From positions 1 to 64,000 of the IMG/VR virus record IMGVR_UViG_3300026488_000022: DNA of 64,000 bases; one strand, 5' to 3'. Positions 23,296 through 44,022 of the stretch are shown in pieces. The translations under genes and the position numbers were made by a program. How positions within the stretch are numbered: position 1 is the stretch's first letter; each line of letters begins with the position of its first letter. The notes beneath the pieces are model-generated. The model did no database searches. It had not been told where the DNA came from and saw only the letters and a list, made by a program, of their open reading frames with translations. This DNA comes from a virus.

Positions 23296-23303
23296 TATAT
23301 CAG
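23296..23303 (-). promoter_or_regulatory. Putative late promoter CTGATATA
   Basis: 33 bp upstream of the tape measure start. Confidence 0.65.
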
Positions 23304-23492
23304 TATAAAATAAAAGTAAAATTTAATTTAAAAGCTCTATTATAATATATAATAACTTTAAGGGTTTGGACAGTGTTGGACAGTAACAAAAAGCCCTAAA
23401 ATTCGGACTTTTAACAACTTGCAAACATTTATAATCAGTAAAAAATATCATTTGGGCGGTCAAGAACATTTTATAATTTTTGTAAAAAACTC

Positions 23493-23521
23493 TTGACATA
23501 AAGTTAAAAGTGTTTTATAAT
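23493..23521 (+). promoter_or_regulatory. Consensus sigma70 early promoter (cassette type)
   Basis: TTGACA-17 bp-TATAAT followed by AAAGGAG RBS. Confidence 0.88.
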
Positions 23522-23558
23522 TCTTAGCATAAAACAAAAAACAAAAGGAGAATTGAAA

Positions 23559-23945
23559 ATGAAAACTACATTTATAAACACAAGAGCAGATTTAGAAAAA
23601 ATGCTAAAAGAAACAAACAAAGAACTTGCTCTTAAATACTTAGAAATATTTAAAAATAGAATAATTTGGGGACAAGCTGAAAAATTTGACAATAATTATT
23701 ATATAGACATTACATTATTTGAAGACACTGATAGCATAAAAAGAGTTAAAGTATCAAAACCAATATTAGAAAATTCAGAGGATGTTCAAAGGTTTATTAT
23801 GTTTTGTCTTGATGAAAAAGATTATATTCATTATTCGAATATAATCACTGATAAAAAACTAATAGGTTTTATAAATGAATTTTATTTAGACTTAATCTCT
23901 TATCACCATTTAAAAGATGAATTAACAAAGGAAAACAATGAATAA
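23559..23945 (+). CDS. Hypothetical cargo protein, antisense to the late operon
   Basis: ATG 8 nt after AGGAG preferred over TTG 23553. Confidence 0.7.
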   Translation: MKTTFINTRADLEKMLKETNKELALKYLEIFKNRIIWGQAEKFDNNYYIDITLFEDTDSIKRVKVSKPILENSEDVQRFIMFCLDEKDYIHYSNIITDKKLIGFINEFYLDLISYHHLKDELTKENNE

Positions 23946-24198
23946 TTATCCTATTCTTTCATTTAGAGTTTATAGTGTTATTTATAGGGCTTTAGAAAAC
24001 AAAAAAGCTAAGATAACATTAAAACACAAGAAAAAAGGCAATTTTAATGTAGAACATTACATAGTAGAAATTAACAACCCCACTTTAAAAGGAAGTGCTA
24101 TTAGAACATACAAACAATATTTTAAAGATAAAAATTTAGAAAAATTTAAAGAAATAATAAATAAAAATGAAAAGATAATTTTTGAAAAGTTTGAGTAA
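23938..24198 (+). CDS. Hypothetical basic cargo protein
   Basis: Overlaps previous ORF with AAGGA RBS; followed by a hairpin. Confidence 0.65.
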   Translation: MNNYPILSFRVYSVIYRALENKKAKITLKHKKKGNFNVEHYIVEINNPTLKGSAIRTYKQYFKDKNLEKFKEIINKNEKIIFEKFE

Positions 24199-24199
24199 A

Positions 24200-24217
24200 G
24201 GGCAGATTTTTCTGCCC
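24200..24217. terminator. Hairpin between convergent cargo and capsid genes, probably a terminator
   Basis: GGGCAGA-TTTT-TCTGCCC. Confidence 0.7.
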
Positions 24218-24228
24218 CCTCAAACGTT

Positions 24229-25443
24229 TTAGTTAGAAGCTACATTAACAATTACAGAAACAGGTGTAGAAGTTACAGAAAGTTTCTTAAAGTCAATATC
24301 TCTATATCCAACATATAGAGTTGTTGAACTAACTGCTTTTCTTTCAGTTTCAATTCCAATGTTTCCTCTATCAGCAACACCAAAATATGCTTTATTAACA
24401 AGTAAAACTGCTGTTTTGTCTCCATTTGTTTCATCAACATCACCATTAGCGTCAAGATTATCAGGGATATACTCAGTTACTACAATAGGCATACCAAATA
24501 ATTTCCCAATCTCACCTGTGATAATTGTAGCTTTAGCACCATATTTATCAATTGTTAGAACTTCTGGAAGTTCAAGCATTTGATATGCTACATTAACAGG
24601 CGCTACAATAGCAAGGTCACTTAAATTAATACCATAAACTCCAAGTAACCTTCTTGCTTGCGCTATAAGACTTGCAGTTACTGTATTTCCACCTGCATCA
24701 ACTTTATTTCCAGCACTTTTAGCGTATTTTAAAAGACCATCAAATGCTTTTTTAACATCATTAACATCAGAAATACCTGTATCACCCATTACAAGTGCGT
24801 CTTCTGTGGCTCTTGCAAGTGATTTTACAAGTTCTTGTCTAACAAGTTGTGTAATAGCTGTTACCATTTCTTTGTCTGCTTGGTCAGTTACTGCTAAAAG
24901 AGTTTTAAATCTTGAAGTTGCAAAACTCACTTTTGCACCATTAATTGCACTTTCAATTGCGTTATCACCAGGAGCAATCAAATAAGCTTTTGCTTTGTCT
25001 GTTTTTGCAGGAATAGAGAACGTACTTCTATTATCAGGCATTCTAAATCTTTGAAATAATCCTTCAACTTTAAGGTCAAGTTCAAGTTCTTCAAGCACTC
25101 TATTTGAAAATTCCTCAGCAAGCCAACTTGCAATGTCTGCTGGTTTAATTGCTTTTTCAACAATAGGAGCAATCTCTTTAAACTCCTCAAAAGTCTCAAC
25201 AGGTCTGCCTAATAGCTTTGATTTAATATGCAAATCAACTGCTTTTTCTCTTGCTTTTTCTACTTCTTTATCGTCATAAGCTTTTGTTTCAAATTGAGTT
25301 TTTCTGTTAGACCATTTATCTTCAAATTCTTTTTTAAGTTCTTCTACTTTTTTTTCTGCTTCAGTTTTAGTAGAGTCAAGTTGTTTTTTAAGTTCTTCTA
25401 CTTCTTTTTGTAGTGTAGAAATTGCTTCAATACCCATAACCAT
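24229..25443 (-). CDS. Major capsid protein, HK97 fold, with N-terminal scaffolding domain
   Basis: Coiled-coil N-terminus, EDALVMGD, FDGLLK, GEIGKLFGMPIVVTEY; T5 pb8-like layout. Confidence 0.9.
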   Translation of the reverse strand: MVMGIEAISTLQKEVEELKKQLDSTKTEAEKKVEELKKEFEDKWSNRKTQFETKAYDDKEVEKAREKAVDLHIKSKLLGRPVETFEEFKEIAPIVEKAIKPADIASWLAEEFSNRVLEELELDLKVEGLFQRFRMPDNRSTFSIPAKTDKAKAYLIAPGDNAIESAINGAKVSFATSRFKTLLAVTDQADKEMVTAITQLVRQELVKSLARATEDALVMGDTGISDVNDVKKAFDGLLKYAKSAGNKVDAGGNTVTASLIAQARRLLGVYGINLSDLAIVAPVNVAYQMLELPEVLTIDKYGAKATIITGEIGKLFGMPIVVTEYIPDNLDANGDVDETNGDKTAVLLVNKAYFGVADRGNIGIETERKAVSSTTLYVGYRDIDFKKLSVTSTPVSVIVNVASN

Positions 25444-25469
25444 ATCCTTTAATGTTATTTTACAAAAGT

Positions 25470-25477
25470 TATATCGG
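25470..25477 (-). promoter_or_regulatory. Putative late promoter CCGATATA
   Basis: 27 bp upstream of the capsid start. Confidence 0.7.
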
Positions 25478-25482
25478 AAAGT

Positions 25483-25647
25483 TTAATTAGATTTATTTTT
25501 AACAAATTTTTCATTATATTCTTTTATTTGTTGATTTAAAAAATCATTAATCTTTTTCAAATCATTACGCTCTTTAACACAGATTTTATAACGATTAAAA
25601 AGTTCTTCAAATTCATTTAGAGGAATTTCTATCATTTTCTTTTTCAT
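25483..25647 (-). CDS. 54-aa ORF absent from the track; possible separated C-terminal part of the o-spanin
   Basis: MKKKMIEIPLNEFEELFNRYKICVKERNDLKKINDFLNQQIKEYNEKFVKNKSN; AAAGG RBS; fills the gap before the capsid promoter. Confidence 0.55.
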   Translation of the reverse strand: MKKKMIEIPLNEFEELFNRYKICVKERNDLKKINDFLNQQIKEYNEKFVKNKSN

Positions 25648-25825
25648 CTTTTACCTTTATATGTAAAGTAATAGGTTTTGTTTTTGTTATATTATATTCA
25701 TAAGTTTGTAAAGCGGGACATTTAGACTTTACAAAAACATATTTAATTTTTTCGGTTTCTTTACAAGCACACCCACTAAGGAATAGTAATATTAACATCA
25801 CGCTCAAAAGTAATATTTTTTTCAC
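25613..25825 (-). CDS. Lipoprotein, probable o-spanin (Rz1-like)
   Basis: Signal peptide II with lipobox LSGC; overlaps the i-spanin 3' end. Confidence 0.7.
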   Translation of the reverse strand: MKKILLLSVMLILLFLSGCACKETEKIKYVFVKSKCPALQTYEYNITKTKPITLHIKVKDEKENDRNSSK

Positions 25826-26096
25826 TATTTTTTCCTTCTTTTTTTATTATTTCTTCTTTAATGTTTTGATATTTATCTTCAAATAAAATAACTTTTAAAT
25901 CATTTTTAATTTTCTGTAATTTAACTTCTAAATTCTCTTTTTCTCTTTTTAGTTTTTTAATTTCTTTTTGTTTTACTAAAATTTGTTGTTCTAATTTTTT
26001 TACTTCTAAACGATAATTAACAACTCCTGCTAATAAAACCAATACAATTCCACTTATAAAATAAGAAAACAATTTAGTTTTTAAAAAATCAAACAT
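25776..26096 (-). CDS. Probable i-spanin (Rz-like)
   Basis: N-terminal transmembrane segment followed by coiled coil. Confidence 0.68.
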   Translation of the reverse strand: MFDFLKTKLFSYFISGIVLVLLAGVVNYRLEVKKLEQQILVKQKEIKKLKREKENLEVKLQKIKNDLKVILFEDKYQNIKEEIIKKEGKNSEKNITFERDVNITIP

Positions 26097-26310
26097 TTGA
26101 ATTTTCCTTTAATTTTGATTTTTCATAACTTCTTCCAGCAATCCAAGCTATCGGAATACCCACAGCAATTGTAGTCCATAAACTTATCAAACTTTCTTTT
26201 AAATTTAAAACCCCAAAACCTTCAAGCAAAGTAATTAACGCACTAAAACACAGAACAAACCAAGACATTAAAGGTCTTGATGTGTTTCTAATTAATTCGA
26301 CTTTATTCAT
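26089..26310 (-). CDS. Probable holin
   Basis: 73 aa, two hydrophobic helices, SRPLMSW and GRSYEK motifs, basic tail, upstream of spanins. Confidence 0.65.
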   Translation of the reverse strand: MNKVELIRNTSRPLMSWFVLCFSALITLLEGFGVLNLKESLISLWTTIAVGIPIAWIAGRSYEKSKLKENSNV

Positions 26311-27721
26311 CTAACTTAAGTTTCTCGTTAATAGTTTTTTCTATTTCCGTATAAACCTCAAACAATAAATTCACATCTTCTTTTTCTTTTAAAAATTTTA
26401 AAATTTCATCTTTTGTTAGTGCTTTTTCACTATTAACAGATTTTTTATTTCCTTGGTCATCTCTATCTGCAAAATACTTTTTCATAAAAGCTAATAGTTT
26501 TGCAACCTCACTTCTACCTATAATAAAATCATAAACATTTCCATCATCTTTAACATATCTTCTAATTCTATAACCTAAAGGTGGGTTAGGATAAGCTGTT
26601 AAAACACTGTTTTCAGTTACATTAACAATCAACTCACCTTGTTCTCCTCCTTGTAACTGACTTCCCTCCTCTGCACCTTGTGCATCACTAATAATTTGAT
26701 TTACTTTATCTTTTCCTAAATTTGTAGTTCCTCCACGTTTAGCTTTTGTTTGCATATTTTCAACCTCCTTAATTTCAGAATAAACTTTTTCTACTTGTGA
26801 CTCAAATTCTTTTACCATATCTTGTAATTCTTGTGGTATTTCTCCTATCAGTTCCTGTTTTAACATTTCTTTATAATGTTTTAAAAGATGCCTTGCGGCA
26901 TCTCTTTTTTCAACAGCACTAATATTAGGATTGTTTCTTGCACCTCTTAGTGCTTGATAAGCCGCAATCACACCATTTTTATTAACTATTAAATCTTCAC
27001 CTTGTAATTCGTGATGAGGAAACTTCCAAGTACTTCTAAGTTCTGGGTCTCCTACAACTAAATACGCTTCTTTAATATAGTTTAATTTACCCATTTCAGC
27101 TAATTTTTGTCCTAAAGCAGTCTTATCTACTTCTGACCAAGGTTTAGTACTAATTACGTTATTTTTTATTGCTTTTTCTTTCATTTTTTTATTTCCTTTC
27201 TTATTGTAATTTTGTCTTGTTGAAAGCAAACAAACTCCACTTTCACAAGGACTGCTTTCTAAAACATTAAACAAGCTATCTTGATTATCTGGTATTGAAA
27301 CGATACTAACTTCATAAAGCTCAATTTTAGTCCAATACCAGATACCATTCACCTCTTTGTATTCAAGCCCTCTAAATCCAATTGAAAAAGCCTTTAAAAT
27401 ACCCTCTTTTACAGCTAAATAAACTTTTGGGTTTAAATCTTTATAAACAACAGCCTCAATTTCAAGCCCTTGAGCATTTAAATTAATATTAGTAACTTTA
27501 CCAACAACATCACTTGGATTATGCTGATAAAGCAAAATAGGATTTTTCATATAGTTTTTTAAATCGTAACTTTCAGGCAAAACACTTTCGTCACTTCTAT
27601 CAATAACCAAATTACCGTTATCGTCGATATAACGATTAGCATATCCTTTTATTGTTATTTTTTCATCAGTAACTTCTGTTGAAAATTCTTTTATAATCAA
27701 ATTTAAGTTTTTATCCATCAA
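26303..27721 (-). CDS. Prohead maturation protease (HK97/S78 family) with long C-terminal extension
   Basis: NPILLYQH, AFSIGF, ELYEVSIVSIPDNQ; extra domain with KFPHHE...HLLKHY. Confidence 0.88.
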   Translation of the reverse strand: MMDKNLNLIIKEFSTEVTDEKITIKGYANRYIDDNGNLVIDRSDESVLPESYDLKNYMKNPILLYQHNPSDVVGKVTNINLNAQGLEIEAVVYKDLNPKVYLAVKEGILKAFSIGFRGLEYKEVNGIWYWTKIELYEVSIVSIPDNQDSLFNVLESSPCESGVCLLSTRQNYNKKGNKKMKEKAIKNNVISTKPWSEVDKTALGQKLAEMGKLNYIKEAYLVVGDPELRSTWKFPHHELQGEDLIVNKNGVIAAYQALRGARNNPNISAVEKRDAARHLLKHYKEMLKQELIGEIPQELQDMVKEFESQVEKVYSEIKEVENMQTKAKRGGTTNLGKDKVNQIISDAQGAEEGSQLQGGEQGELIVNVTENSVLTAYPNPPLGYRIRRYVKDDGNVYDFIIGRSEVAKLLAFMKKYFADRDDQGNKKSVNSEKALTKDEILKFLKEKEDVNLLFEVYTEIEKTINEKLKLDE

Positions 27722-27742
27722 AACTCCTTAAAACTTTTATAT

Positions 27743-27750
27743 TATATCGT
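27743..27750 (-). promoter_or_regulatory. Putative late promoter variant ACGATATA
   Basis: 22-25 bp upstream of the protease start, abutting copy D. Confidence 0.45.
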
Positions 27751-27752
27751 CT

Positions 27753-27900
27753 TAAAAAATTCTATTATAATATATAAATAACTTTAAGGGTTTGGACACT
27801 TTGGACAGTAACAAAAAGCCCTAAAATTCGGACTTTTAACAACTTGCAAACATTTATAATTAGTAAAAAATATCATTTCGGCGGTCAAGAGGTTTTTATA
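27753..27900. repeat. Dispersed element, copy D (no promoter extension)
   Basis: Same core boxes and 38-bp spacer as copy A. Confidence 0.97.
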
Positions 27901-27921
27901 AAAAGAGAGAAAAGAAAAGAT

Positions 27922-28419
27922 TTATACTCCAACAAAAGCGTGGTTAATAAACACAATCAATTGGTCTTGGTCAGTAACATCAAAAGCCTCATCAAATAAA
28001 AAATGGTTTAAAGCTTCAGTAGGATTATCTGGGTCATCTACTAAAGCACCTTCTATAACTCCATTTGCGACTACTTCACCTACGTCATATGTTATTTTAT
28101 ATGTTATAACATTTTCCCCTCCATTAGTATTTCCTTCATCTGTATAGTTTCTTTGGGGGAAACCACTATCGACAATTCTTGAACTTGGGTCTATATAAGC
28201 ATTAACATCAGTATCGTCTTTTGTAGGGTTTGAACTATCCGTTCCTAACCTTAAATATAAAGTATCTAATGAACTTGTTTCACCTATAATTTTTTTAGCA
28301 TAATGAATATCCCCAGCATTTGTTACTATATTATGCCCTTTAATTATTTTTTCTTTTCCTGTTTTTTTATTAATTATTTTTACTAAAATATTATCTTTTA
28401 CAATTCCTTTTACTAACAC
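27922..28419 (-). CDS. Virion structural protein, tail collar/fibre-attachment-like
   Basis: HNIVTNAG...LRLGTD..P...DT pattern; GTG start with AAGGAG RBS. Confidence 0.55.
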   Translation of the reverse strand: MLVKGIVKDNILVKIINKKTGKEKIIKGHNIVTNAGDIHYAKKIIGETSSLDTLYLRLGTDSSNPTKDDTDVNAYIDPSSRIVDSGFPQRNYTDEGNTNGGENVITYKITYDVGEVVANGVIEGALVDDPDNPTEALNHFLFDEAFDVTDQDQLIVFINHAFVGV

Positions 28420-28445
28420 TTTAAAACTCCTTTAATCTTTACATT

Positions 28446-28453
28446 TATATCAG
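28446..28453 (-). promoter_or_regulatory. Putative late promoter CTGATATA
   Basis: 27 bp upstream of start 28419. Confidence 0.6.
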
Positions 28454-29133
28454 AAACTGCTTTCTTTGTTGTTTTTTTGTAATTCTTTCATTTCCTCTTG
28501 TTGTATCTTATCATAAAGTTTTAAACTTGCTAAATAAAAAAATTTAGTCTGGTCGTATAAACCGCCCTCATCTGGTAGAAAACCTTTTTCAAAAGCGTTA
28601 TAACATTCAATAGCTTCTGCAATTAACTTTTTATCTACATCATAAATAGGACAATATGTATAGACTTTATCTCCAACATAAACTTTAAAATCTTTTTTCT
28701 TGTTTTTTTCTCCTCTAAAACCACAATTTCTAACTCTATCAAGTCTTTTTGCTTTACAAACTTCACATTTCCAAGTTTCAGCTTTAAATTTACTATCAAA
28801 ATAAATATCAATACTATCATAAAGTTTATTTAGCACCTCTAAAGTAACATCGCTCACTTCAAAAATAAACTTACCTACTTCTTTAATAGTATCTGAAGAT
28901 AAAAAAGAGAAAGGCAATTCAACTCCCTTTTTATCTTCTATTTTTACAACTGAAAATTTAAGAGCGTAATAATATAATTTTAAAACCTCACCGTTTAACA
29001 TATAAGGCTCAAGTGAGTTAATTTCCCTATAAGATAACGTTCTTAGCATTAATTCTAAATTAGGTTGAGAATTTGGAGTAATAAAGTGAATTACCTTATG
29101 ACTTTTAACATTATTTATCATCCTCTTCTTCAC
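28450..29133 (-). CDS. Tail assembly chaperone-like protein with Cys cluster
   Basis: CEVC...CG...CP and LPDEGGLYDQ; follows the first chaperone. Confidence 0.55.
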   Translation of the reverse strand: MKKRMINNVKSHKVIHFITPNSQPNLELMLRTLSYREINSLEPYMLNGEVLKLYYYALKFSVVKIEDKKGVELPFSFLSSDTIKEVGKFIFEVSDVTLEVLNKLYDSIDIYFDSKFKAETWKCEVCKAKRLDRVRNCGFRGEKNKKKDFKVYVGDKVYTYCPIYDVDKKLIAEAIECYNAFEKGFLPDEGGLYDQTKFFYLASLKLYDKIQQEEMKELQKNNKESSF

Positions 29134-29521
29134 CTAAGTAAAGTTTTGCATTTTCTGGGTCTTTAGAAATTCCTACAATTACATTTGCAATTTCAGTTAT
29201 AAATGAAATAGGAAGATAATTTAAAGTTTCATCAGAAATACCGATAGTATCCCTATTAATAGGAATTTCTCTATTTCTCTCATCAAGTAAATTCCTCCAA
29301 TCTACTATTCCTCTTTTGCAAACTTCCCAATTATAAGAACCGGTAGAAACACTAATACTTTCATCTTTATTTAACCTAACCATTTTATCTTCAATCTCAA
29401 TGAGTTCTTTTGGAGTTAAAGGTCTAATTTCAACTGTAAAAGGGTCTTTTTCTCCTCTTTCTAAGATAGGAACATATCTATAAGTTATATCCTTTTTAGC
29501 TCTATCAATTCTAATTGCCAT
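29111..29521 (-). CDS. Tail assembly chaperone
   Basis: Directly after major tail gene; IRPLT and GIVDWRNL motifs. Confidence 0.7.
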   Translation of the reverse strand: MAIRIDRAKKDITYRYVPILERGEKDPFTVEIRPLTPKELIEIEDKMVRLNKDESISVSTGSYNWEVCKRGIVDWRNLLDERNREIPINRDTIGISDETLNYLPISFITEIANVIVGISKDPENAKLYLGEEEDDK

Positions 29522-29555
29522 TTATTATCCTTTATTAATTAAATTTAGTTAATAA

Positions 29556-29580
29556 AGCACACAAAAATTATTTGTGTGCT
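29556..29580 (-). terminator. Probable terminator after the major tail gene
   Basis: AGCACACAAA-5 nt-TTTGTGTGCT hairpin followed by TTATT. Confidence 0.6.
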
Positions 29581-30893
29581 AAATAGAATGCCTCACCTAA
29601 AACTGGATGTTCATATGCCTCAAACTCAAGTTTATTTGCAAGAACACCATCATCATCTTCTACACTTACACTTGTGTATTTGATATATGGTAACCAAATT
29701 GCAAATTTATGTTTTTGTGTTTCATCGTCAGTTTCAGTTTTCATTTCAAGGAAAAACTCTGCTGTTTGATTATTTTTGAATTTGTTAAGCTCATCCCAAT
29801 TTTCAAAAGTAACAGTCATACTACCTTTAACTGTTTTTTTAGTGATAATTTTCCTCATAATACCAGAACTTGTAATAGCCTCTCTATCAGAAACTTGATT
29901 TTCGATTGTTATTTCAACATCTTTACCTTCATAAGTTTTACCATCAACTGTAAGAACTGCATTTTTACCAACATATGGTATTGTTGTTAAATATTGATTT
30001 GAAAGCAAAGGTTCATTTTCTGCTGTTTCAAAAGAACTTGCTCCTAAATCAATTGACAATGTTGCAATATCTGCAACAGGAAAACTAAATTTAACTGAAT
30101 TTGGAACTGCACCTTTTAGTGTTAAACTTCTACTATCAGTCTCATCACACCCATACATCAATTTAACAGCTAAAGATTGTTCCTGACCACAAGGCTTAGC
30201 GAGTTTATATAAAACAGCATCCCCTGTTTCGCCTTCTTGAACTTCGTAGATTTGATAAGCAACATTACTAACAACATCAATTGTGAATTTATCTCCTACT
30301 GCAAAGTCAGTAGAGCCACTAACAATTTTAAATTTAATAATACCGTTGTCATAATCAACACCTGTTGTTGCCTCAGCTTGTGTGCCACTTTCAGTTCCTT
30401 CAACACTCCAAACCTCAGCACCTGCTGTATCTGCATTTATACACTCAATAGTCCAAGTTTCAGTTTTAATAGTGTCTTCATAATACCCAAAATTAGTTAA
30501 GTTACCGTCCCCTGTGTTTCCACTATCAGCTGTGATAGTACTTTCAACTTGAGGGGCTTTGTTTGCTCTAATTACAGCCCCTGTACCAGACCCTGCCTCT
30601 TCTCTAATACCTAATGCTACTTCTAAAACTACATTACCTGCTAAATCATTACTTCCATCTCCTAATGGAATTAGCTCAAATGCTAATGTCCCACTACCAA
30701 ATTCTTTACCCGGTAATGCAGGAGCAGTAATATAAGAGTTTCTTACAACTTTTCTTTCAATAACGTCAATTTCTGGTTTTAATGCACTATCAGATGTAAC
30801 TTCAACAACATCACTGTCTGTAAATGTACCACCTTTATTAAATTCTGCTTCTTTAATAACCGCATAAAGAGTAGATAAAGTTTTATATGCCAT
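29568..30893 (-). CDS. Major tail tube protein with inserted beta-domain
   Basis: Tube-like N- and C-terminal halves (GSGTLAFEL, ITIEN, VKGSMTVTF), own late promoter and terminator, upstream of chaperones. Confidence 0.8.
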   Translation of the reverse strand: MAYKTLSTLYAVIKEAEFNKGGTFTDSDVVEVTSDSALKPEIDVIERKVVRNSYITAPALPGKEFGSGTLAFELIPLGDGSNDLAGNVVLEVALGIREEAGSGTGAVIRANKAPQVESTITADSGNTGDGNLTNFGYYEDTIKTETWTIECINADTAGAEVWSVEGTESGTQAEATTGVDYDNGIIKFKIVSGSTDFAVGDKFTIDVVSNVAYQIYEVQEGETGDAVLYKLAKPCGQEQSLAVKLMYGCDETDSRSLTLKGAVPNSVKFSFPVADIATLSIDLGASSFETAENEPLLSNQYLTTIPYVGKNAVLTVDGKTYEGKDVEITIENQVSDREAITSSGIMRKIITKKTVKGSMTVTFENWDELNKFKNNQTAEFFLEMKTETDDETQKHKFAIWLPYIKYTSVSVEDDDGVLANKLEFEAYEHPVLGEAFYLAHK

Positions 30894-30924
30894 TTTACCT
30901 TCCTTTTATTTATTCTACAAAAAT

Positions 30925-30932
30925 TATATCGG
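30925..30932 (-). promoter_or_regulatory. Putative late promoter CCGATATA
   Basis: 32 bp upstream of the major tail start. Confidence 0.7.
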
Positions 30933-30939
30933 ATAGGTA

Positions 30940-31917
30940 TTATTCACCTTCGATAATACCTTCACCTGCTAATTTTATCGGACTTTTCACCACAGGATTT
31001 AACACCCTGTATTTTACATTCAATTTATCAAAACCTTCTTCTGTTATTATTTTAGTTTCTATTATTTCAATTTCTGGTAATTCTATACCATAAGAAAATT
31101 GAACATTTTTATTATTAATTTCAAAAAATGACACTTCTTTACTTAGATAATCAATTTCAGCTAAATTTAAAGTTCTGTTAAAAAATCTTGTCTGGTCAAA
31201 TAAAGCCTTAGTATAAGATTTATTACTCATAGGAGGCAAGAAAGCATAATTTCTTTTTGCACATAAAATATAAGATACTTTTACTCCGTTTTCAAATTCA
31301 ATTGTTAGTTTATTTTGATAAAGCTCTTTTAAACCTACAAAATATAAAAATTCAATATTAAATACTTTTTCGGTATTAGGATTTATTACATCTCCTATAT
31401 TAATACCTTTAATTTGAATACCATAAACATTTAACAAATTAATACTTTTAACTTTTAAATCTTCCTTATAACCATTAACAAACTTAACTTCAACAACTTT
31501 ACTAATATCATCAGTTAAATCCACTTCAACCCAAAAATTGCCTTTAAAAACACCTTTACTCCAGATTAAATTTTCTTTTAAAGTATCCTTAATAAGATAA
31601 AAATTGTCTTTTATTTCTGTCTGAATAATTTTGTTTTCTAATTTATAACCATAAACTGTTAATTTTTTAAGTTTTTGTTGAGGTTTAACAAAATAAGTAG
31701 AATATAAAACACTATAATAATTACAATTTTTTAAATTAATTTTATAATTGCAACTTTTAACAGAAGTTACATTTCCTTCTAAGGCTTTTAATAACTTATA
31801 AGAAACACTTTCATTAATACTTTCGTTTTCTAAATTATAAACTCTTAATTTTGCATTAACAAAATTTTTATCACCTATATTTGTGTTTTCATTTATATAC
31901 TTATTTATAGTAGCCAT
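30940..31917 (-). CDS. Structural protein; paralog of 13053-14300
   Basis: MATINKYINE...KLRVYNLENESINESVSYKLLK vs MGTIIKYVTE...KLRIYDSENIQIQESVSYQIVK. Confidence 0.55.
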   Translation of the reverse strand: MATINKYINENTNIGDKNFVNAKLRVYNLENESINESVSYKLLKALEGNVTSVKSCNYKINLKNCNYYSVLYSTYFVKPQQKLKKLTVYGYKLENKIIQTEIKDNFYLIKDTLKENLIWSKGVFKGNFWVEVDLTDDISKVVEVKFVNGYKEDLKVKSINLLNVYGIQIKGINIGDVINPNTEKVFNIEFLYFVGLKELYQNKLTIEFENGVKVSYILCAKRNYAFLPPMSNKSYTKALFDQTRFFNRTLNLAEIDYLSKEVSFFEINNKNVQFSYGIELPEIEIIETKIITEEGFDKLNVKYRVLNPVVKSPIKLAGEGIIEGE

Positions 31918-33638: not shown

Positions 33639-33639
33639 A

Positions 33640-34047: not shown

Positions 34048-34126
34048 AATGAAAACCCTTTTAAAAATTCAATACATAACATCAATAAAATTACAAAATA
34101 AAATAAATTAGTACTTTTTTTAATTA

Positions 34127-34612
34127 TCATATCAGCTCCTTAGACTCTTTTAAAATCAATTCAAATAAATCTCCTACTGAAGTGATATTACCTCTACCTT
34201 TATCAAACAAAACATCATACATCCAATCTTTCCAATAAGGCACTTTTCCATCTTTTCTTTGGGGTTTTGCCATATCAGTAAATTTAGCATAAGGCACTCC
34301 TATTTCTGCCCAACTATGAATTATAAAACTTTCTCCTTTTTTATAACTCTCAACCTTTGTTTTAATACTATTAACTTGATTTCCACTAATTTTATAAGTA
34401 AATCTTCTTTTTAACGGTCTTCTTTTATGGAGGTATTCAACAGGAATAGGAGTACCTAATGCTCTTTTAAGTGCTTTTTTCCAAGCTTTTAAATCTAAAT
34501 CAAGATTTTTTGCTAAAAGTTCTAATTTATGAAAAGATAAATCGGGTAATTCTTTTTTAAGCCCTACCCAAGCCTCCCCGACTGATTTTTTTATCCTCAC
34601 ATTAGCTATCAT
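34127..34612 (-). CDS. Neck / tail completion protein (HK97 gp10-like)
   Basis: SGNQVNSIK, VPYAKFTD; basic; position. Confidence 0.55.
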   Translation of the reverse strand: MIANVRIKKSVGEAWVGLKKELPDLSFHKLELLAKNLDLDLKAWKKALKRALGTPIPVEYLHKRRPLKRRFTYKISGNQVNSIKTKVESYKKGESFIIHSWAEIGVPYAKFTDMAKPQRKDGKVPYWKDWMYDVLFDKGRGNITSVGDLFELILKESKELI

Positions 34613-35166
34613 AATCTAAATACCCTAAAAGAATTTAACATTTTATCTACAACAGCAGGAACTTCATCATTAACTTTCATACTTTCTCTAATGCCTGTGG
34701 ATAAAGAAGCTATGTTATCTGTATCTTTTGTTACGTCATTATAAAGTTTTTTTCCTAATAACAATAAACCTGATACCAACCCCTCAGGTATTAAATCAAT
34801 ATCATTATAACCTACCTTATATTCAATTCGCATAATCTGATAGTTCTCTATTGAAAATAAAACAGGCAGATAAATTCTATTTAATTCTCCTATTTCAAAA
34901 CTTAATAACACATCATTTTCAAGCTCCTCGCCATCAATCGTTATTTTTATAATTTCACTTATTAGACCTTTTTTTGTATAAATAGAGTTACCATAAATTT
35001 TATTAATGCGCTCAACTAAATCTCTTTCAAAAATTCCCACATTATAATAGTCATAAATATAACTCTCACTTATAATTAATATTTCTTTTAACAATTCATC
35101 TATTTCATCATCTTGAATATCTAAAACTTTTTTAAACTCTATTAACAAATCATCTATAAGAGCCAT
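34609..35166 (-). CDS. Head-tail adaptor (head completion) protein
   Basis: K..L.I.D...D..L, IEYKVGY...IPEGL, ends LNSFRVFRL. Confidence 0.75.
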   Translation of the reverse strand: MALIDDLLIEFKKVLDIQDDEIDELLKEILIISESYIYDYYNVGIFERDLVERINKIYGNSIYTKKGLISEIIKITIDGEELENDVLLSFEIGELNRIYLPVLFSIENYQIMRIEYKVGYNDIDLIPEGLVSGLLLLGKKLYNDVTKDTDNIASLSTGIRESMKVNDEVPAVVDKMLNSFRVFRL

Positions 35167-35206
35167 AACTTATCCTTTTATAAAACTTACAATTTTAGAC
35201 CAAAAA

Positions 35207-35485
35207 TCAACTATTTTCTTTTTTAGACTTTGCTTTTCTTTTCCTCGTTTGACTTTTGGTATGTAATTCGCTTGTGGTTTCCCTCTCTTTACGAAGTAAC
35301 TCCTTTTTAGAATTTTTAGTCGTATCTTTAATCTTTTCTATTAAAACAAATTCTTTTGGAAAAGTAGAAAGCAGATATTTACCAAGCTCTTCATCTACAA
35401 CATACAAACCATCATATCTATTAGGACTAAATAAAATCCCTCTAACCATAATACCTTTACCGATAACTTTAATTTTATATTTCAT
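35207..35485 (-). CDS. Small protein of the head-completion region
   Basis: 92 aa with basic tail; type usually found directly after major capsid genes. Confidence 0.5.
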   Translation of the reverse strand: MKYKIKVIGKGIMVRGILFSPNRYDGLYVVDEELGKYLLSTFPKEFVLIEKIKDTTKNSKKELLRKERETTSELHTKSQTRKRKAKSKKENS

Positions 35486-35516
35486 TATAAATCCTTTTAA
35501 TAAATGTATTTACTTA

Positions 35517-35524
35517 TATATCAG
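35517..35524 (-). promoter_or_regulatory. Putative late promoter CTGATATA
   Basis: 32 bp upstream of start 35485. Confidence 0.65.
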
Positions 35525-35714
35525 TATAAAATAAAAGTAAAATTTAATTTAAGAATTCTATTATAATATAATAATAACTTTAAGGGTTTGGACACTTTTG
35601 GACAGTAGCAGAAAGCCCTAAAATTCGGACTTTTAACAACTTGCAAACATTTATAATCAGTAAAAAATGTCATTTCGGCGGTCAAGAGTTTTTTATAATT
35701 TTTGTAAAAAACTC

Positions 35715-35743
35715 TTGACATAAAGTTAAAAGTGTTTTATAAT
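35715..35743 (+). promoter_or_regulatory. Consensus sigma70 early promoter (cassette type)
   Basis: TTGACA-17 bp-TATAAT. Confidence 0.88.
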
Positions 35744-35780
35744 TCTAAGCATAAAACAAAAAACAAAAGGAGAATTGAAA

Positions 35781-35906
35781 ATGAAAAGAGATTTTAATAT
35801 TTTAAAAATATATCAAAGAGAAATAAATTGCAGACCAAAAGTTGTTAAAAACAAAAAGAAATATACAAGGAAAGTAAAGCATAAAAAAGCTTTACTAAAC
35901 TTTTAA
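35781..35906 (+). CDS. 41-aa basic peptide, ArfA-like (alternative ribosome rescue factor resemblance)
   Basis: Not in the track. MKRDFNILKIYQREINCRPKVVKNKKKYTRKVKHKKALLNF, with promoter and AAGGAG RBS; RxxVxKNKK..YxRKxKH pattern. Confidence 0.55.
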   Translation: MKRDFNILKIYQREINCRPKVVKNKKKYTRKVKHKKALLNF

Positions 35907-37229
35907 ATCAGGCTCACCACCAAGTGGGTCTGTGCTTCCTACATTTGTAGGTTTGTTTTGCCCTTCTGAACTATTTTGACTCATTTTTACTAAATCTTGA
36001 AAGAATTGTGCTTCACTTCCTGTTAAAAATGCAGGAACAACATTTTTGTCAGCTCCTTCAAAATCCATTTCTGGTAAATCAACTAAATCTCTTGCCTCAT
36101 TTAATGTAGCAAGTCCTGTTGCAAACAATGTTCTTGCACTATCAGCTTTTACATCAAGTGCAGTATCAAGTTCTGTTATTCTTCCAAAATCAAACTCAAA
36201 ATAATATTTTCCATAACCAAATTGTTTCCCTAAAAAGAGATTAATTTGGTCTTGTATTCTATAAAGATAAGGTCTGACTGCAGTATTAAAAACAACTTTC
36301 ATTAATTCTTGAGGTTTTCCTGCACTTTTATCTTCTCCTCCTAAAACAAGAGAATTTAATTTAAAAACTCTTAAAACTCTTTTTTCACTTATATCAAGGC
36401 TATCTAATAACATTGCGTCTCTTGGACTTGCTTGTACTGTTTTATAATCCATTTTAGCGGGTAAAACAGCAATTCCTCTTCTCTCACTTCCTCCTTTACC
36501 ATATAAAGCATTGAATTGGTCTCTTAATTCATCTATTTGTTGAGGTGTTAGAGCATATTCTGCTTTTAAAATACCAGCTAAAATTACACTACCCTCATAA
36601 AACTCTTTTAAACTATCAATAGCGTCCTTTTCTAAAGTTAAAGTGTCAAGTAAAGGTGCTACACTCGGCAAACCGTAATATGCATTATTTAATGTTGGGT
36701 TAATAATCCAAATAAGTTCGTTTTCTTTATAAGCAATTTGGTCATTATAAATATACCCTTTAATAAATTTAGAGGCGTCAGGTACAACTTGCACTAAATG
36801 TGGTTGGGTTAAAAACCAAGTTTCATAACTTCCTTTAACGTTTTCAAAAGTTAAAGGCGCTACCCCTGAAAGTAATAAACCTTGAATTGCAAGTTCAATT
36901 ATAACTCCCCAGGACCAAAAAGGATTTGGTCTATATTCCCATTCTGCTAATTTTTTATCTTTAACAGGCAGTTTTTTACCCGATTTATCTAACCTATAAA
37001 GTCTTGGGATTGCTTGTCCTCCAGCTTTTGCGATATAATCAACTGCACTAAAAACAAGCTCACTTGTATGAAAAGTGTTTTCCATTCCACTTGTAGCAAG
37101 TTGATTGTTACCTAATTTATAATCCTCAGCTATTTTTTTATTTGCTTTTGTTGCCTTTGTGTCCATATAAACTATTGTTTGTTTTTCTGTTTTTATATCC
37201 TTAGGTTTTAAAAAATCAAATAATCCCAT
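35895..37229 (-). CDS. Portal protein (HK97 family)
   Basis: VFSAVDYIA, RPNPF, YYGLPSVAPL, AGILK, TLNEARDL. Confidence 0.92.
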   Translation of the reverse strand: MGLFDFLKPKDIKTEKQTIVYMDTKATKANKKIAEDYKLGNNQLATSGMENTFHTSELVFSAVDYIAKAGGQAIPRLYRLDKSGKKLPVKDKKLAEWEYRPNPFWSWGVIIELAIQGLLLSGVAPLTFENVKGSYETWFLTQPHLVQVVPDASKFIKGYIYNDQIAYKENELIWIINPTLNNAYYGLPSVAPLLDTLTLEKDAIDSLKEFYEGSVILAGILKAEYALTPQQIDELRDQFNALYGKGGSERRGIAVLPAKMDYKTVQASPRDAMLLDSLDISEKRVLRVFKLNSLVLGGEDKSAGKPQELMKVVFNTAVRPYLYRIQDQINLFLGKQFGYGKYYFEFDFGRITELDTALDVKADSARTLFATGLATLNEARDLVDLPEMDFEGADKNVVPAFLTGSEAQFFQDLVKMSQNSSEGQNKPTNVGSTDPLGGEPDLKV

Positions 37230-37260
37230 TTATATTCCTTTTTGTTATTTTACTATTAAA

Positions 37261-37268
37261 TATATCAG
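37261..37268 (-). promoter_or_regulatory. Putative late promoter CTGATATA
   Basis: 32 bp upstream of the portal start. Confidence 0.65.
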
Positions 37269-37289
37269 TATAAAAAACAAAAGGAGAAA

Positions 37290-37424
37290 AAATGAAAAAG
37301 AAGAAAGAGCGGAAGCTCAATTGAAGCTTGTTTTACAAACCTCAATTGAACGCCCATTTCAGGCGTTCTAAATCAAACACCCATTTCAGGTGTTTTAAAT
37401 TGAACACCCACCCCAGGTGTTCTA
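37290..37424 (-). ncRNA. Candidate late small RNA of three tandem 27-nt hairpins plus a terminal hairpin
   Basis: Units 37344-37370, 37371-37397, 37398-37424 with compensatory stem changes; upstream CCGATATA; U-rich end. Confidence 0.5.
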
Positions 37425-37428
37425 CTAT

Positions 37429-37436
37429 TATATCGG
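37429..37436 (-). promoter_or_regulatory. Putative late promoter CCGATATA not followed by a CDS
   Basis: Sits 5 bp from the hairpin array. Confidence 0.55.
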
Positions 37437-37439
37437 AAA

Positions 37440-40378: not shown

Positions 40379-41191
40379 TTAACTGATAGTACTATCTAAT
40401 GAACTACCTTGTTGATAAGCAGTTCGCAATACTTTATATTCAATTGTAATACCATAATCATTTGTTATATTTATATTATCCAAATAAGTAAAATCAACAG
40501 CAAAACCAGACTCATTGTCACGCCAATCATTGATATTTCCCCATTCAGCTGGATAAATAACATAACAATATTTATTTGTGCTTCCTATTGAAAAACTATA
40601 ATGTCCAGCATACCCACTTTTCAAGGCACTGTTTTCAAGATTTTTAACCTCATCTTCAGTTAATGTATCATTCACTGAAGTTCCCCAATAAACTCTTGCC
40701 CTCCAATAAACACGAAAATCACGGCTAAAGATTTGCCCTTTTGTATTAATTCCACTAATTCTCCAAGTATAAGAACTGTTAATTCCGCTTGAAGTTTTAT
40801 CGTCCCCAATATCTAAATCTTCCTGTCCATCGTTTGCTAAATTATCACCTAAAATCGCATTAGCATTTACATCTTTAATTCTAATTGAGTTTTCTTGAAT
40901 GTTTTCTGAATGACTTGTAGTCCATTTAAAAGTTCTAACTCCTCCGTTTATAACTTGGCCCACTTCTAACTGCGTAACTTGTCCATCAATATAAAAACTT
41001 GTAAAAGCAGGGTATTGATAAGGAAATAAAATCATTTTTAAAACTTCACAAGGTTGTAGCCCGTTTATATCCGTTCCTGCTTCTAAACCTCCGTGTGTTT
41101 CAGGCACTGTATCCTCAGTTTGCATAACACAACCAGCTTGGTCTCCTACCCCTATATCTGGATAAATTATAGAAAATTTATTATTTGCCAT
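40379..41191 (-). CDS. Virion structural protein with Ig-like domain
   Basis: GG...GT...ILFPYQYPAF, LEVGQ, YVIYPAEWG; own late promoter. Confidence 0.55.
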   Translation of the reverse strand: MANNKFSIIYPDIGVGDQAGCVMQTEDTVPETHGGLEAGTDINGLQPCEVLKMILFPYQYPAFTSFYIDGQVTQLEVGQVINGGVRTFKWTTSHSENIQENSIRIKDVNANAILGDNLANDGQEDLDIGDDKTSSGINSSYTWRISGINTKGQIFSRDFRVYWRARVYWGTSVNDTLTEDEVKNLENSALKSGYAGHYSFSIGSTNKYCYVIYPAEWGNINDWRDNESGFAVDFTYLDNINITNDYGITIEYKVLRTAYQQGSSLDSTIS

Positions 41192-41217: not shown

Positions 41218-41225
41218 TATATCAG
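41218..41225 (-). promoter_or_regulatory. Putative late promoter CTGATATA
   Basis: 27 bp upstream of start 41191. Confidence 0.65.
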
Positions 41226-41270
41226 TTATATTACTCTTATAAAAAATTTTAAAATTTTTGTAAAAAACTC

Positions 41271-41299
41271 TTGACATAAAGTAAAAAATATTTTATAAT
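41271..41299 (+). promoter_or_regulatory. Consensus sigma70 early promoter (cassette type, without core element)
   Basis: TTGACA-17 bp-TATAAT with the same flanks as copies C, E, F. Confidence 0.88.
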
Positions 41300-41332
41300 T
41301 CTAAATGTAAAACAAAAAACAAAGGAGAAAAT

Positions 41333-41902
41333 ATGGCAACAATTAAACAACTTGGAGAAATTAAAGTAGTAGAAATTAGAGGGGTTGGAGAAAACATCTC
41401 CGACGAAACTAAAAGAATTTTTTTAAGTAAAAGTGGGTTAAAAATAATTGAAGAATATGAAAGAACAAAAGAAAGCAATCCTGAGGAAGCACCAAGCTGG
41501 GAAGATGTTATTAACAAGCTTGAACTTTATTTTAACAAAAACAACAAACCTATTTTAACTGCTAAAAAAGATAAAACAAAAATAACAATTAACAAATATA
41601 TTGAAAGCAGTTATAGGGGAACTTCTTATATTGAAGAAACAAGTGAAGGAGTTACAATAGTTAGCGCAACAGGTGCTGGAAGACTTGGTGAGCATACTGA
41701 ATTTATTGCTACTATACCAGAAGGATGTTATGTTATTGTTTATAGTGGTGGGAGATATCACAAAGGTTGGACTTGTTTTAAAAATGTAGAAGGAGAACTT
41801 AAAACTTATGAATTTTACAATAGAGGCAAATATGTAGAAAAACCTGATTATGAAGACGCTAAAATAGCTTTTGGATTAATGGATTGTGCTTGTGAAGATT
41901 AA
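41333..41902 (+). CDS. Hypothetical cargo protein, antisense to the late operon
   Basis: Promoter, AAGGAG RBS and 189-aa ORF converging on terL. Confidence 0.75.
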   Translation: MATIKQLGEIKVVEIRGVGENISDETKRIFLSKSGLKIIEEYERTKESNPEEAPSWEDVINKLELYFNKNNKPILTAKKDKTKITINKYIESSYRGTSYIEETSEGVTIVSATGAGRLGEHTEFIATIPEGCYVIVYSGGRYHKGWTCFKNVEGELKTYEFYNRGKYVEKPDYEDAKIAFGLMDCACED

Positions 41903-41905
41903 TTT

Positions 41906-43264
41906 TTACACGACCTGAATTTGTAAATTTTGCAATTTCCACCACCCACTTGTTAAATACCTTAAAGCACCTACGGACAAATCAAAATGTCCGTCCTTGT
42001 TTCTTTCTATTGTTTTTCCATTGCTATTTTCTTTCCAATGAGCTAATTTTAATTCTTCAATCAATTGCATACAATTTTCTGATATGAATAATTTTCCTTT
42101 TTGAAATGCCGTGTTAATGTCCCTAATGCTTTCTACTAATTGAATTGGTGCGGGTTGTGTATAGTAACTATAACTATACGCCATATCTGCCATTGTCAAA
42201 CTTGCACTTGGGTCACAAAATCTTACAATCTGCATATCAGGATTTTCACAATATCTTTGTTCTATTTCTCTAAAATGTTTAATGTGCCATTCAATAGGCA
42301 TTTGCCCCGCCATATATTCATCTAAAACATAAATATTACCAGTCATTGGCTCTATCCAAGCCATAACAAAACTTGTATTGTCCCTAAAACCAATATCAAT
42401 TCCTACTGCAAACGTATCTTTTGTTGTCATTTTATTTTTTAAATCACTAACTCTAAATACATTTTTTTCTAAATCAAAAGCATAAAATACCTGCAAATCC
42501 TCACTAAACCCACTTTGAAACTCACATAAATATTCTTGTTCAAAACTTCTTTTATCAAGTTTTGCTTTTATTGACTCAATCATTTCTTTTGTTATCATAG
42601 GATTATCATAAACTGTAACTTTTTTACAAAAATAATCGTTTCTTTGCCCACATCTTTTCCATAACTTATAAAAATCATTATCAAAAGTTCTTGGTGTTCC
42701 TATAAAATAAGTTTTAGAAAACATAAAGCCGTTTTCATCAGTACCATAATCGTTTTGTGCTGGTGAAATGTAGGTTTCCCAAATTTCAAGAACATTATTT
42801 ATACTCGCAGTTTCATCAAAAATAACTAAACTGAATTTATCTCCAAGTGCATTTTCATAATTTTTTTCTGTAACTACACGAAATTTAGCACCATTTTCTA
42901 ATGTAAATGTTAAACCTTTCATATCCTTTGATTTAAAAGGTAATTGTAGTTTATTTACATCTTTTTCAACATTACTAAAAATAGCTTGTGCATTTGCAAA
43001 TGTAGGTGTTACTAATAATATACTTGCATTAGGAATTAAAAGTTCTGACAATGCAATTTTTGACATAATTGTAGATTTACCTGCCCTTCTTGACATTAAA
43101 AAAACACCAACATTAAAATCAGCTTTTTGTATCCTATCAATTATCTCTTGTTGATATTTTGTAGGTGTAAATTCTAACAATTTTAATACTTTATTATAAT
43201 CAATTTTTCTTTTTACTTTTTTATAAAGTTCTATTTCTTGATTTACAGGTTTAAATTCTGACAT
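41906..43264 (-). CDS. terL: Terminase large subunit
   Basis: Walker A SRRAGKS, Walker B LVIFDE, GTP coupling motif, FEQEYLCEF, nuclease GIDIG. Confidence 0.95.
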   Translation of the reverse strand: MSEFKPVNQEIELYKKVKRKIDYNKVLKLLEFTPTKYQQEIIDRIQKADFNVGVFLMSRRAGKSTIMSKIALSELLIPNASILLVTPTFANAQAIFSNVEKDVNKLQLPFKSKDMKGLTFTLENGAKFRVVTEKNYENALGDKFSLVIFDETASINNVLEIWETYISPAQNDYGTDENGFMFSKTYFIGTPRTFDNDFYKLWKRCGQRNDYFCKKVTVYDNPMITKEMIESIKAKLDKRSFEQEYLCEFQSGFSEDLQVFYAFDLEKNVFRVSDLKNKMTTKDTFAVGIDIGFRDNTSFVMAWIEPMTGNIYVLDEYMAGQMPIEWHIKHFREIEQRYCENPDMQIVRFCDPSASLTMADMAYSYSYYTQPAPIQLVESIRDINTAFQKGKLFISENCMQLIEELKLAHWKENSNGKTIERNKDGHFDLSVGALRYLTSGWWKLQNLQIQVV

Positions 43265-43299
43265 TAAATCTTCCTTTTTAATAGATTGTAATTTTAAGT

Positions 43300-43307
43300 T
43301 ATATCAG
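43300..43307 (-). promoter_or_regulatory. Putative late promoter CTGATATA
   Basis: 36 bp upstream of the terL start. Confidence 0.65.
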
Positions 43308-43497
43308 TATAAAATAAAAGTAAAATTTAATTTAAGAATTCTATTATAATATAATAATAACTTTAAGGGTTTGGACACTTTTGGACAGTAGCAGAAAGCC
43401 CTAAAATTCGGACTTTTAATAACTTGCAAACATTTATAATCAGTAAAAAATGTCATTTCGGCGGTCAAGAACATTTTATAATTTTTGTAAAAAACTC

Positions 43498-43526
43498 TTG
43501 ACATAAAGTAAAAAATGTTTTATAAT
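43498..43526 (+). promoter_or_regulatory. Consensus sigma70 early promoter (cassette type)
   Basis: TTGACA-17 bp-TATAAT. Confidence 0.88.
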
Positions 43527-43557
43527 TCCAATACAAATAAAAACAAAGGAGAATAAA

Positions 43558-44022
43558 ATGGAATATAGCGTAATAATAAATCTAACTCAACATAAAGCAA
43601 CTGAAGAACAAAAACAGGCAGGTGTGATAGACCTGCCAGAAAAATATCAAACAAAATTAAGAACACTTTTAACGTTTAATGAATTACCAAATTGTAAAGA
43701 AATCACTAATAGAGCTGAAAAAATAGGAGATTTAGTTTTAGAATTTTTATCAGATAATTTAAGTCCTGTTAAAAACGAAGTTGAACAAATTTTAAAATTA
43801 GATGAAATTAAACAAATTGAAGAATTTGAAAAACTAAATTTAGGTTTTATGATAGGTGGAGCGCCTTATCTTATGGGCGCTTTAGAAGAAGAACTAAGTT
43901 ATTTTGGGACACCTTTATATGCCTTTACAAAAAGAATTGTAGAAGAAATAAAAAAATCAGACGGAACAGTAGAAAAGAAAGCAATATTCAAACACGAAGG
44001 CTTTGTTCCTGCTTGTATTTAA
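43558..44022 (+). CDS. Csx20/Csx15-like CARF-related protein; candidate cyclic-oligoadenylate ring nuclease
   Basis: NLTQH..TEEQ, MIGGAPYLM, PLYAFTKR..EE....DG...K..IFKH..F match my recollection of the Csx20 pattern. Confidence 0.55.
   Translation: MEYSVIINLTQHKATEEQKQAGVIDLPEKYQTKLRTLLTFNELPNCKEITNRAEKIGDLVLEFLSDNLSPVKNEVEQILKLDEIKQIEEFEKLNLGFMIGGAPYLMGALEEELSYFGTPLYAFTKRIVEEIKKSDGTVEKKAIFKHEGFVPACI

Follow-up and report, generated by a model that had tools for sequence, protein, structure and literature searches.

What does it mean that several small genes, lodged between the virion-protein genes of one phage and read against them, stand behind nearly the same promoter and ribosome site? 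The phage is that of IMG/VR record IMGVR_UViG_3300026488_000022 (80,614 bp with 127-bp terminal repeats, 26.5% G+C), here called G0; the window analysed is bases 1-64000 of this record. The DNA sequencing runs that contain G0 sequence are hydrothermal-vent metagenomes, and the search for such runs listed none of RNA. A six-frame search of the 80.6-kb genome gave no match to the tyrosine recombinases (PF00589; positive controls 14/14 genomes) and none to the serine recombinases (PF00239; recombinase controls positive in 13-14 genomes); G0 is therefore probably virulent, an uncultured phage of the vents. Its virion-protein genes span 7.7-48.7 kb on the minus strand, and the minus-strand region from ~56 kb encodes a DNA ligase and a DnaG-type primase. 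An earlier note on this DNA had described the repeated promoter as the flank of integron-like slots, in which small genes are exchanged by recombination. Our analysis makes a somewhat different arrangement likely: portable early cassettes within a two-step transcription programme, in which accessory genes stand under a copied expression unit and are exchanged by homologous recombination.

The unit is ~70 nt long and runs from an A/T-rich upstream stretch through a promoter, which in every copy matches TTGACA-17-TATAAT at 12/12 positions, and an A-rich leader to GGAG, with the start codon 6-9 nt further on. Conservation among the units is not limited to the promoter hexamers, it spans the promoter spacer and the entire leader up to GGAG. 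The 15-mer CTCTTGACATAAAGT, around its -35 box, occurs exactly six times in G0, on the plus strand at 23490, 35712, 41268 and 43495 and on the minus strand at 57651-57665 and 60945-60959. The earlier note had counted the same six; its positions for the two minus-strand units, 57634 and 60928, are the low-coordinate ends of real copies (Table 1). With up to three mismatches the 15-mer has 9 matches, a number that 0/100 dinucleotide shuffles reached, and a profile of the unit retrieves the six copies from the genome at E-values of 1e-15 to 1e-19, the next best hit being not better than 0.14. Behind each of the four plus-strand copies (slots 1 to 4, in order of coordinate) stand GGAG and an ATG (23559, 35781, 41333 and 43558), and each copy heads a different open reading frame (ORF) that converges on late genes, as had been described.

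Two close relatives were found by searching IMG/VR with the large terminase TerL: G1 (our genome G001, 83.9 kb, TerL 97% identical in amino acids) and G2 (G002, 78.9 kb, 93%). Both are collinear with G0 at ~70-92% nucleotide identity, and all six units head genes that have no intact homologue at the same place in G1 or G2. The plainest case is slot 3, where a ~660-bp cassette (the unit and an ORF of 189 aa) is present in G0 only and the distance from the terL stop codon to the late motif is 38-66 bp in the relatives; by this comparison the cassette is an insertion in G0. At slot 4, between terL and terS, the leaders of G0 and G1 are common up to ATGG, after which the two sequences are wholly different until the end of terS. 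G0 has one gene in this interval, G1 has five, the last of them a 41-aa ORF at 91% aa identity, and G2 has two other genes followed by a copy of the G0 gene that has decayed by a stop codon and a frameshift. The 41-aa ORF stands in slot 2 in G0 and in slot 4 in G1, and its C-terminal residues differ between the two because the late-gene end into which the ORF runs is not the same in the two genomes. A place that in G0 has only a partial copy of the core described below (45.1-45.3 kb) carries plus-strand cargo in both relatives, in G1 a 167-aa ORF behind a perfect promoter (L011:9335-9838) and in G2 a protein with a PAPS-reductase domain (E 1.5e-12, L015:7156-7881).

Slot contents thus differ between relatives; identical cargo at every slot, which would have spoken against exchange, was not what the comparison returned. 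The proposal that conserved flanks let cargo be exchanged is borne out at the terL/terS slot, where the replaced stretch is bounded by such flanks. It does not extend to a standard pair of flanks, as only the 5' flank is standardised and the unit itself is not found in G1 or G2, which do have perfect sigma-70 promoters of their own. An exact search for the unit in IMG/VR returned no record besides G0. The unit is therefore a family confined to one genome, and does not serve the relatives as a common docking site. Of the two terminase genes that were said to be separated by a cassette, terL is secure; terS is a probable assignment, made from position, a helix-turn-helix (HTH) motif and a weak family match.

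How the six units came to be alike can be judged from their identities. Pairs drawn from the six have a mean identity of 0.84, background promoter pairs one of 0.66. With their own positional orthologues in G1 and G2 the slot 4 unit and the 60.9-kb unit are only 0.63-0.76 identical, and these G1 and G2 orthologues agree with each other at 0.76-0.83. Slot 4 has a leader orthologous to the one in G1 and a promoter part that matches the other G0 copies. In slots 1, 2 and 4 the likeness extends to 300-bp composites (late motif, core, unit and first two codons) that are 91-92% identical. G0 has five other perfect promoters, for the most part in front of conserved genes, and the orthologous promoters in G1 and G2 have unrelated spacers. 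Copying or gene conversion of the unit within the G0 lineage fits these within-genome data best. The six might instead be alike since a factor of phage or host, an early shut-off repressor or a RegA-like translational repressor, recognises the spacer and leader, selection then keeping them identical, with slot turnover as the usual flux of accessory genes in which the repeats play no part. Conservation of the spacer and of the whole leader is what would be expected of an operator, three of the unit-driven cargo families are adjacent to one another in other elements, which would fit co-regulated partners, and the unit is absent beside the cargo homologues of an unrelated phage (G003, below). 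We nevertheless hold this account to be unlikely, since units that differ from their positional orthologues and match other units of the same genome require replacement or conversion, and the identity of the composites takes in the core, well beyond any operator. Shared regulation is compatible with copying or conversion, and both may apply.

Late-gene signals lie on the upstream side of the plus-strand units. As the earlier note had it, all four stand back to back with a late promoter motif, the minus-strand CYGATATA, at a distance of 46 bp in slot 3 and of 190 bp in slots 1, 2 and 4, in which a core repeat lies between. CYGATATA has 12 intergenic copies in G0, all on the minus strand and each 34-43 nt before the nearest late-gene start, and is kept at orthologous places in G1 and G2. 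A sigma-70-family protein is encoded at 78647-79249, outside the window (Sigma70_r2 32 bits, above the cut-off; PHROG sigma factor, E 1.9e-9), and is the likely reader of these motifs; given the placement and this sigma factor, CYGATATA is a plausible late promoter. The core is a repeat of ~200 bp in 7-8 copies, to which the units of the slots at 23.3, 35.5 and 43.3 kb are joined, the three fusions previously reported. Read in the late direction it opens with a terminator-like hairpin (8-bp stem including a G-U pair, predicted to work only on that strand, then a U run), which forms in 7/7 full or near-full copies; next are two TGTCCAAA repeats, and the late motif closes the core. It looks like a composite of terminator and late promoter. 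The parts common to the relatives' versions are a TGTCC...CCTTAAAG box and the hairpin box. A minus-strand sigma-70 promoter within the core (TTGACC...), judged by eye, was rejected for its poor spacing and poor -10 element. The 70-nt unit itself forms no stable hairpin, the only symmetry being a 7-bp inverted repeat with a loop of 23-25 nt across the joint of core and unit.

Core copies are also found away from the early unit, at 7511-7700, 27722-27901, 45152-45339, 48796-48988 (reverse complement) and 17306-17340; of these, the 48.8-kb copy has an inverted orientation, facing the plus-strand block from 49042 onwards. The order of two blocks, protease/capsid (24227-27755) and neck/tail (27772-35525), is reversed in G0 with respect to both relatives, whose order is the canonical one. 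Copies of the core lie at 3/3 breakpoints of this swap (23.3, 27.7 and 35.5 kb) and have longest common exact runs of 46-60 nt, so the swap could possibly be an assembly ambiguity; none of our main conclusions rests on it.

Downstream of the cargo, predicted terminator-like hairpins follow within 0-95 nt in three of the four plus-strand cassettes. Their positions bear on the suggestion that the plus-strand units mainly send convergent transcripts into the late genes (portal, terL, terS and capsid) to repress them early, their ORFs being incidental. That all four units face late genes is in keeping with it, as are the overlaps of cargo ORFs with the stop codons of portal and terS and the missing terminator at slot 4. 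The hairpins behind the other three cargos would cut such transcripts short, the ORFs of the cargo are well provided with ribosome sites, three of them having conserved homologues elsewhere, and late genes that depend on a separate sigma factor would not need early antisense; we regard control of this kind as the main role of the units as very improbable. Site-specific capture of cargo at attachment sequences in the unit or core, the integron-like platform of the earlier note, has next to no chance of being right: the standardised 5' flank, the precise junctions at the start codon and the presence of the 41-aa cargo in different slots of two relatives would suit it, but neither a tyrosine nor a serine recombinase was found in the 80.6-kb genome, no repeat common to the 3' ends of the cassettes (no attC-like element) was seen, every cassette has its own 12/12 promoter where integron cassettes are promoterless, and the 3' junctions lie at different late-gene ends, the C-terminus of the 41-aa peptide varying with its neighbour.

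We therefore return to portable early cassettes, which remain the likely answer, and set out how they would work. Perfect host-type sigma-70 promoters would drive the early genes, and the phage sigma factor would then drive the late genes from CYGATATA. The four plus-strand units, placed in gaps of the virion region, would serve for early expression, from the opposite strand, of small moron-like units, and each of the six units in G0 heads one or two accessory genes. The gaps are hot spots at which genes come and go, are replaced or decay. When relatives co-infect, exchange would probably proceed by ordinary homologous recombination, with the leader and late-promoter region as the flank on one side and a conserved late gene as the flank on the other, and the unit has probably been copied, or homogenised by gene conversion, within G0. 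The repeats, where they stand, how the relatives differ and what the cargo resembles are observations; early timing, the working of the terminators and the path of recombination are deductions from them.

Several points weigh against this proposal. The early timing of the units is deduced only from the promoter consensus and the existence of a phage sigma factor. Selection for a shared regulator, in place of recombination, could be what keeps spacer and leader alike. A copy of the unit stands 5' of each cargo and none 3' of it, so that the mini-circle route put forward for the promoter-early stem-loop (PeSL) cassettes of T4-type phages, in which excision takes place between two flanking repeats, is inapplicable as such. 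Slot 4 has no terminator-like hairpin after its cargo. The comparison covers three close genomes (G0, G1 and G2), all of them metagenome assemblies of one project. Finally, where homologues of the cargo occur in the unrelated phage G003 their upstream sequences are unlike the G0 unit; between unrelated phages, therefore, the genes move without the unit.

The cargo itself gives some indication of what the cassettes are for. Two of the four cargos had been taken for host-interaction factors, a view that is supported for the 154-aa protein of slot 4 and only in part for the 41-aa peptide of slot 2. The 154-aa protein matches the NCBIfam model CAS_Csx20 (NF040559) with E 1.5e-8 and 35 bits against a curated cut-off of 70, and does so at model positions 90-121 only, the C-terminal 32 residues. 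All of its 224 homologues belong to PF27247, and 38 of the 40 that were aligned match CAS_Csx20 (best E 7.8e-14); PF27247 is therefore a related family despite the score below cut-off. Csx20 is a proven ring nuclease for cyclic tetra-adenylate (cA4) and is reported from 4/28,114 phage genomes (PMC12409355). In IMG/VR, 180 stretches encode a relative of the G0 protein; PF27247 is thus common in viral contigs, far beyond the four phage genomes in which Csx20 proper is reported. The structure model of the 154-aa protein has a predicted local distance difference test (pLDDT) score of 96.7 and consists of beta-strands with flanking helices. VIA-align places racemases at the top (Z 6.3) and SAVED/CARF chains at Z 3.8-4.9, with no decisive match in the PDB, CARF folds included, and Foldseek gave nothing below E 1e-3. 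With Csx20 and the viral ring nucleases (AcrIII-1, Crn; PMC12409355) the protein has in common the CAS_Csx20 match, its small size, its carriage by a phage and an early-type promoter, as expected of an anti-CRISPR; it differs in its score below cut-off, the match limited to the C-terminus and the lack of a decisive CARF fold match. From these comparisons it probably counters the cyclic-oligoadenylate signalling of type III CRISPR systems and is a ring-nuclease candidate.

The 41-aa basic peptide of slot 2 had been called ArfA-like, and the likeness holds at the level of a motif only. Against residues 26-45 of E. coli ArfA 11/20 positions are identical, in the motif K-V-x-K-N-K-K...Y-x-R-K-x-K-H (pairwise E 0.003), and the small size is similar. 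An assignment to ArfA (PF03889) was rejected: the hidden Markov model (HMM), run over the six-frame genome, is silent on this ORF, and hhalign gives a probability of 5% against E. coli ArfA. The difference from ArfA extends to the family, which is DUF7230-like and comprises ~40-aa basic peptides in 47 clusters, 26/47 of which match DUF7230 and 0/47 ArfA. The 189-aa protein of slot 3 is of a rare family, with six homologues among 5.8 billion clusters. Its model (pLDDT 87) has as best viral structure match an uncharacterised SIRV11 protein (E 9e-4, TM-score 0.43); the model has no PDB match and no known fold, and a search of the ESM Atlas was without usable match. Neither ORF of slot 1 (23559 and 23938) matched a known family, and no homologue of the first was found.

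Some of these genes keep company elsewhere. G003, a complete phage of 39.7 kb and 33% G+C, comes from the metagenome that also yielded G2 and has no structural gene in common with G0. It encodes homologues of the 189-aa protein (83% aa identity), of the unit 6 cargo at 60295-60888 (70%) and of 56942-57241 (43%), on the same strand and beside an SSB-like gene. In L025, an unrelated vent contig, one operon has a member of the 189-aa family, the small peptide and a Csx20-like gene side by side. L027, also an unrelated vent contig, has the trio side by side as well, with the peptide gene decayed, and upstream of it there are genes for a RecE/Cas4-like exonuclease, an anti-restriction protein and an SSB. 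A Csx20-like gene followed directly by a small DUF7230/ArfA-tail-like ORF occurs in a 103-kb IMG/VR virus of 41% G+C (L036:4001-4509). Against the generality of the link, the partner is absent within 3-4 kb at 79/80 Csx20-like viral loci and at 12/12 other peptide loci. That the three form one counter-defence module, directed against type III CRISPR or other RNA-cleaving defences, is a suggestion we consider rather doubtful; in such a module the ring nuclease would remove the cA4 signal, the peptide would act on ribosomes stalled on cleaved mRNA and the 189-aa protein would be a partner of unstated role. The earlier note had named three cargo genes, 23559, 23938 and 41333, as anti-defence candidates. 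For 41333 there is support through guilt by association; the searches yielded nothing in favour of the other two.

Table 1. Positions in the G0 record of the expression units, their surroundings and cargo, and the main late genes.
Feature	Position	Strand	Remarks
Unit 1	23478-23555	+	TTGACA 23493, TATAAT 23516, GGAG, ATG 23559
Unit 2	35700-35777	+	TTGACA 35715; same as unit 1 through first two codons (ATGAAA)
Unit 3	41256-41329	+	TTGACA 41271; without core; 46 bp from late motif at 41225
Unit 4	43483-43552	+	TTGACA 43498
Unit 5	57608-57674	-	replication region; TTGACA starts 57662; heads G0-specific 57331-57594 and 56942-57241
Unit 6	60901-60971	-	TTGACA starts 60956; heads G0-specific 60295-60888 and 59982-60284
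Core, slot 1	23289-23488	-	terminator-like hairpin, two TGTCCAAA, late motif CTGATATA at 23303
Core, slot 2	35511-35711	-	late motif at 35524
Core, slot 4	43297-43493	-	late motif at 43307; upstream of terL
Late motif CTGATATA	41218-41225	-	for gene 40379-41191; kept in G1 and G2; cassette 3 inserted just past motif
Strong hairpin (-20.7 kcal/mol)	24189-24228		between slot 1 cargo and major capsid gene end; likely two-way terminator
Terminator-like hairpin and T run	35938-35960	+	~30 nt past slot 2 cargo, inside portal 3' end
Terminator-like hairpin and T-rich tail	41973-41994	+	~70 nt past slot 3 cargo, inside terL 3' end
Slot 1 cargo	23559-23945 (128 aa) and 23938-24198 (86 aa), overlapping	+	both absent from G1 and G2
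Slot 2 cargo, 41-aa basic peptide	35781-35906	+	DUF7230-like, ArfA-tail-like motif; overlaps portal stop codon
Slot 3 cargo, 189-aa protein of rare family	41333-41902	+	cassette absent in G1 and G2
Slot 4 cargo, 154-aa Csx20-related protein (PF27247)	43558-44022	+	pseudogene in G2; five other genes in G1
Tape measure	17339-23263	-	family searches
Major capsid	24229-25443	-	family searches
Head protease	26303-27721	-	family searches
Tail protein	29568-30893	-	family searches
Portal	35895-37229	-	family searches
Large terminase (terL)	41906-43264	-	PHROG E 2.2e-35; secure
HTH protein, probable small terminase (terS)	44019-44546	-	position, HTH, weak Terminase_2 match (E 0.079)

A megablast search of the region against GenBank phages gave no match, and scans of the window with Rfam and for tRNA genes found nothing. 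At 37230-37439, on the minus strand, a CCGATATA motif at 37436 and the portal's own CTGATATA at 37268 enclose three tandem hairpin units of ~27 nt (ACACCTG...GGGTGTT type); the array may be a small structured RNA or a leader. A perfect TTGACA-18-TATAAT promoter at 49252 on the minus strand lies within the 5' part of a 628-aa gene, is directed at a 520-aa gene at 48747 and is found at orthologous places in G1 and G2. Two tandem repeats of 45 nt, 98% identical, occupy 57824-57914, ~150 bp upstream of unit 5.

The cassettes of G0 would extend the portable promoter cassettes known as PeSLs and morons to a phage that is not T4-type and comes from a poorly known habitat. The genes that vary between close relatives are, in this tidy case, exactly those marked by one standard expression unit, and such a unit could be used to pick out accessory, probably host-directed, genes. 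The counter-defence candidates which it has pointed to here are the Csx20-related protein, the family of small peptides whose tail is ArfA-like, and the rare 189-aa protein found in company with both.

Among known systems, PeSL cassettes of T4-type phages (Arbiol et al., 2010, PMC2839356; Comeau et al., 2014, PMC4122927) resemble those of G0 in having a repeated motif of ~100 bp with a consensus sigma-70 promoter and an AT-rich upstream part, which ends in a Shine-Dalgarno sequence and start codon. PeSLs stand in front of ORFans, a few of them within virion modules, and indels or replacements between close relatives are bounded by the motif, as are the insertion at slot 3 and the replacement at slot 4. 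The differences are considerable. G0 is not T4-type and has six copies where phi1 and RB49 have about 50; its unit lacks a stable stem-loop, the hairpin belonging to the neighbouring core in the late direction; and its cassettes are single, dispersed and directed against late genes, with the repeat on one side in place of the two flanking motifs and mini-circles of PeSLs. The G0 unit is, moreover, paired with a composite of late terminator and promoter, and is near-identical within the genome without being shared by relatives at 93-97% TerL identity.

The moron concept is established for tailed phages, the lambdoid ones among them, and is said to go back to work of Juhala and Hendrix, from 2000. 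In their classic form morons are expressed from prophages. Like them, the G0 cassettes are self-contained units of promoter, gene and, in part, terminator between late genes that are adjacent in relatives, slot 3 being an exact fit; unlike them, they sit in a phage in which no integrase was found and which looks virulent, and they share one standard promoter. Integrons have the tyrosine recombinase IntI and promoterless cassettes that are read from one promoter, Pc, each ending in attC. With these G0 shares an array-like set of places where unrelated small genes swap; it differs in that no integrase was found, no attC seen and no common Pc exists, the slots being dispersed and the cassettes self-promoted. 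By analogy, then, the G0 cassettes are closest to PeSL cassettes and morons.

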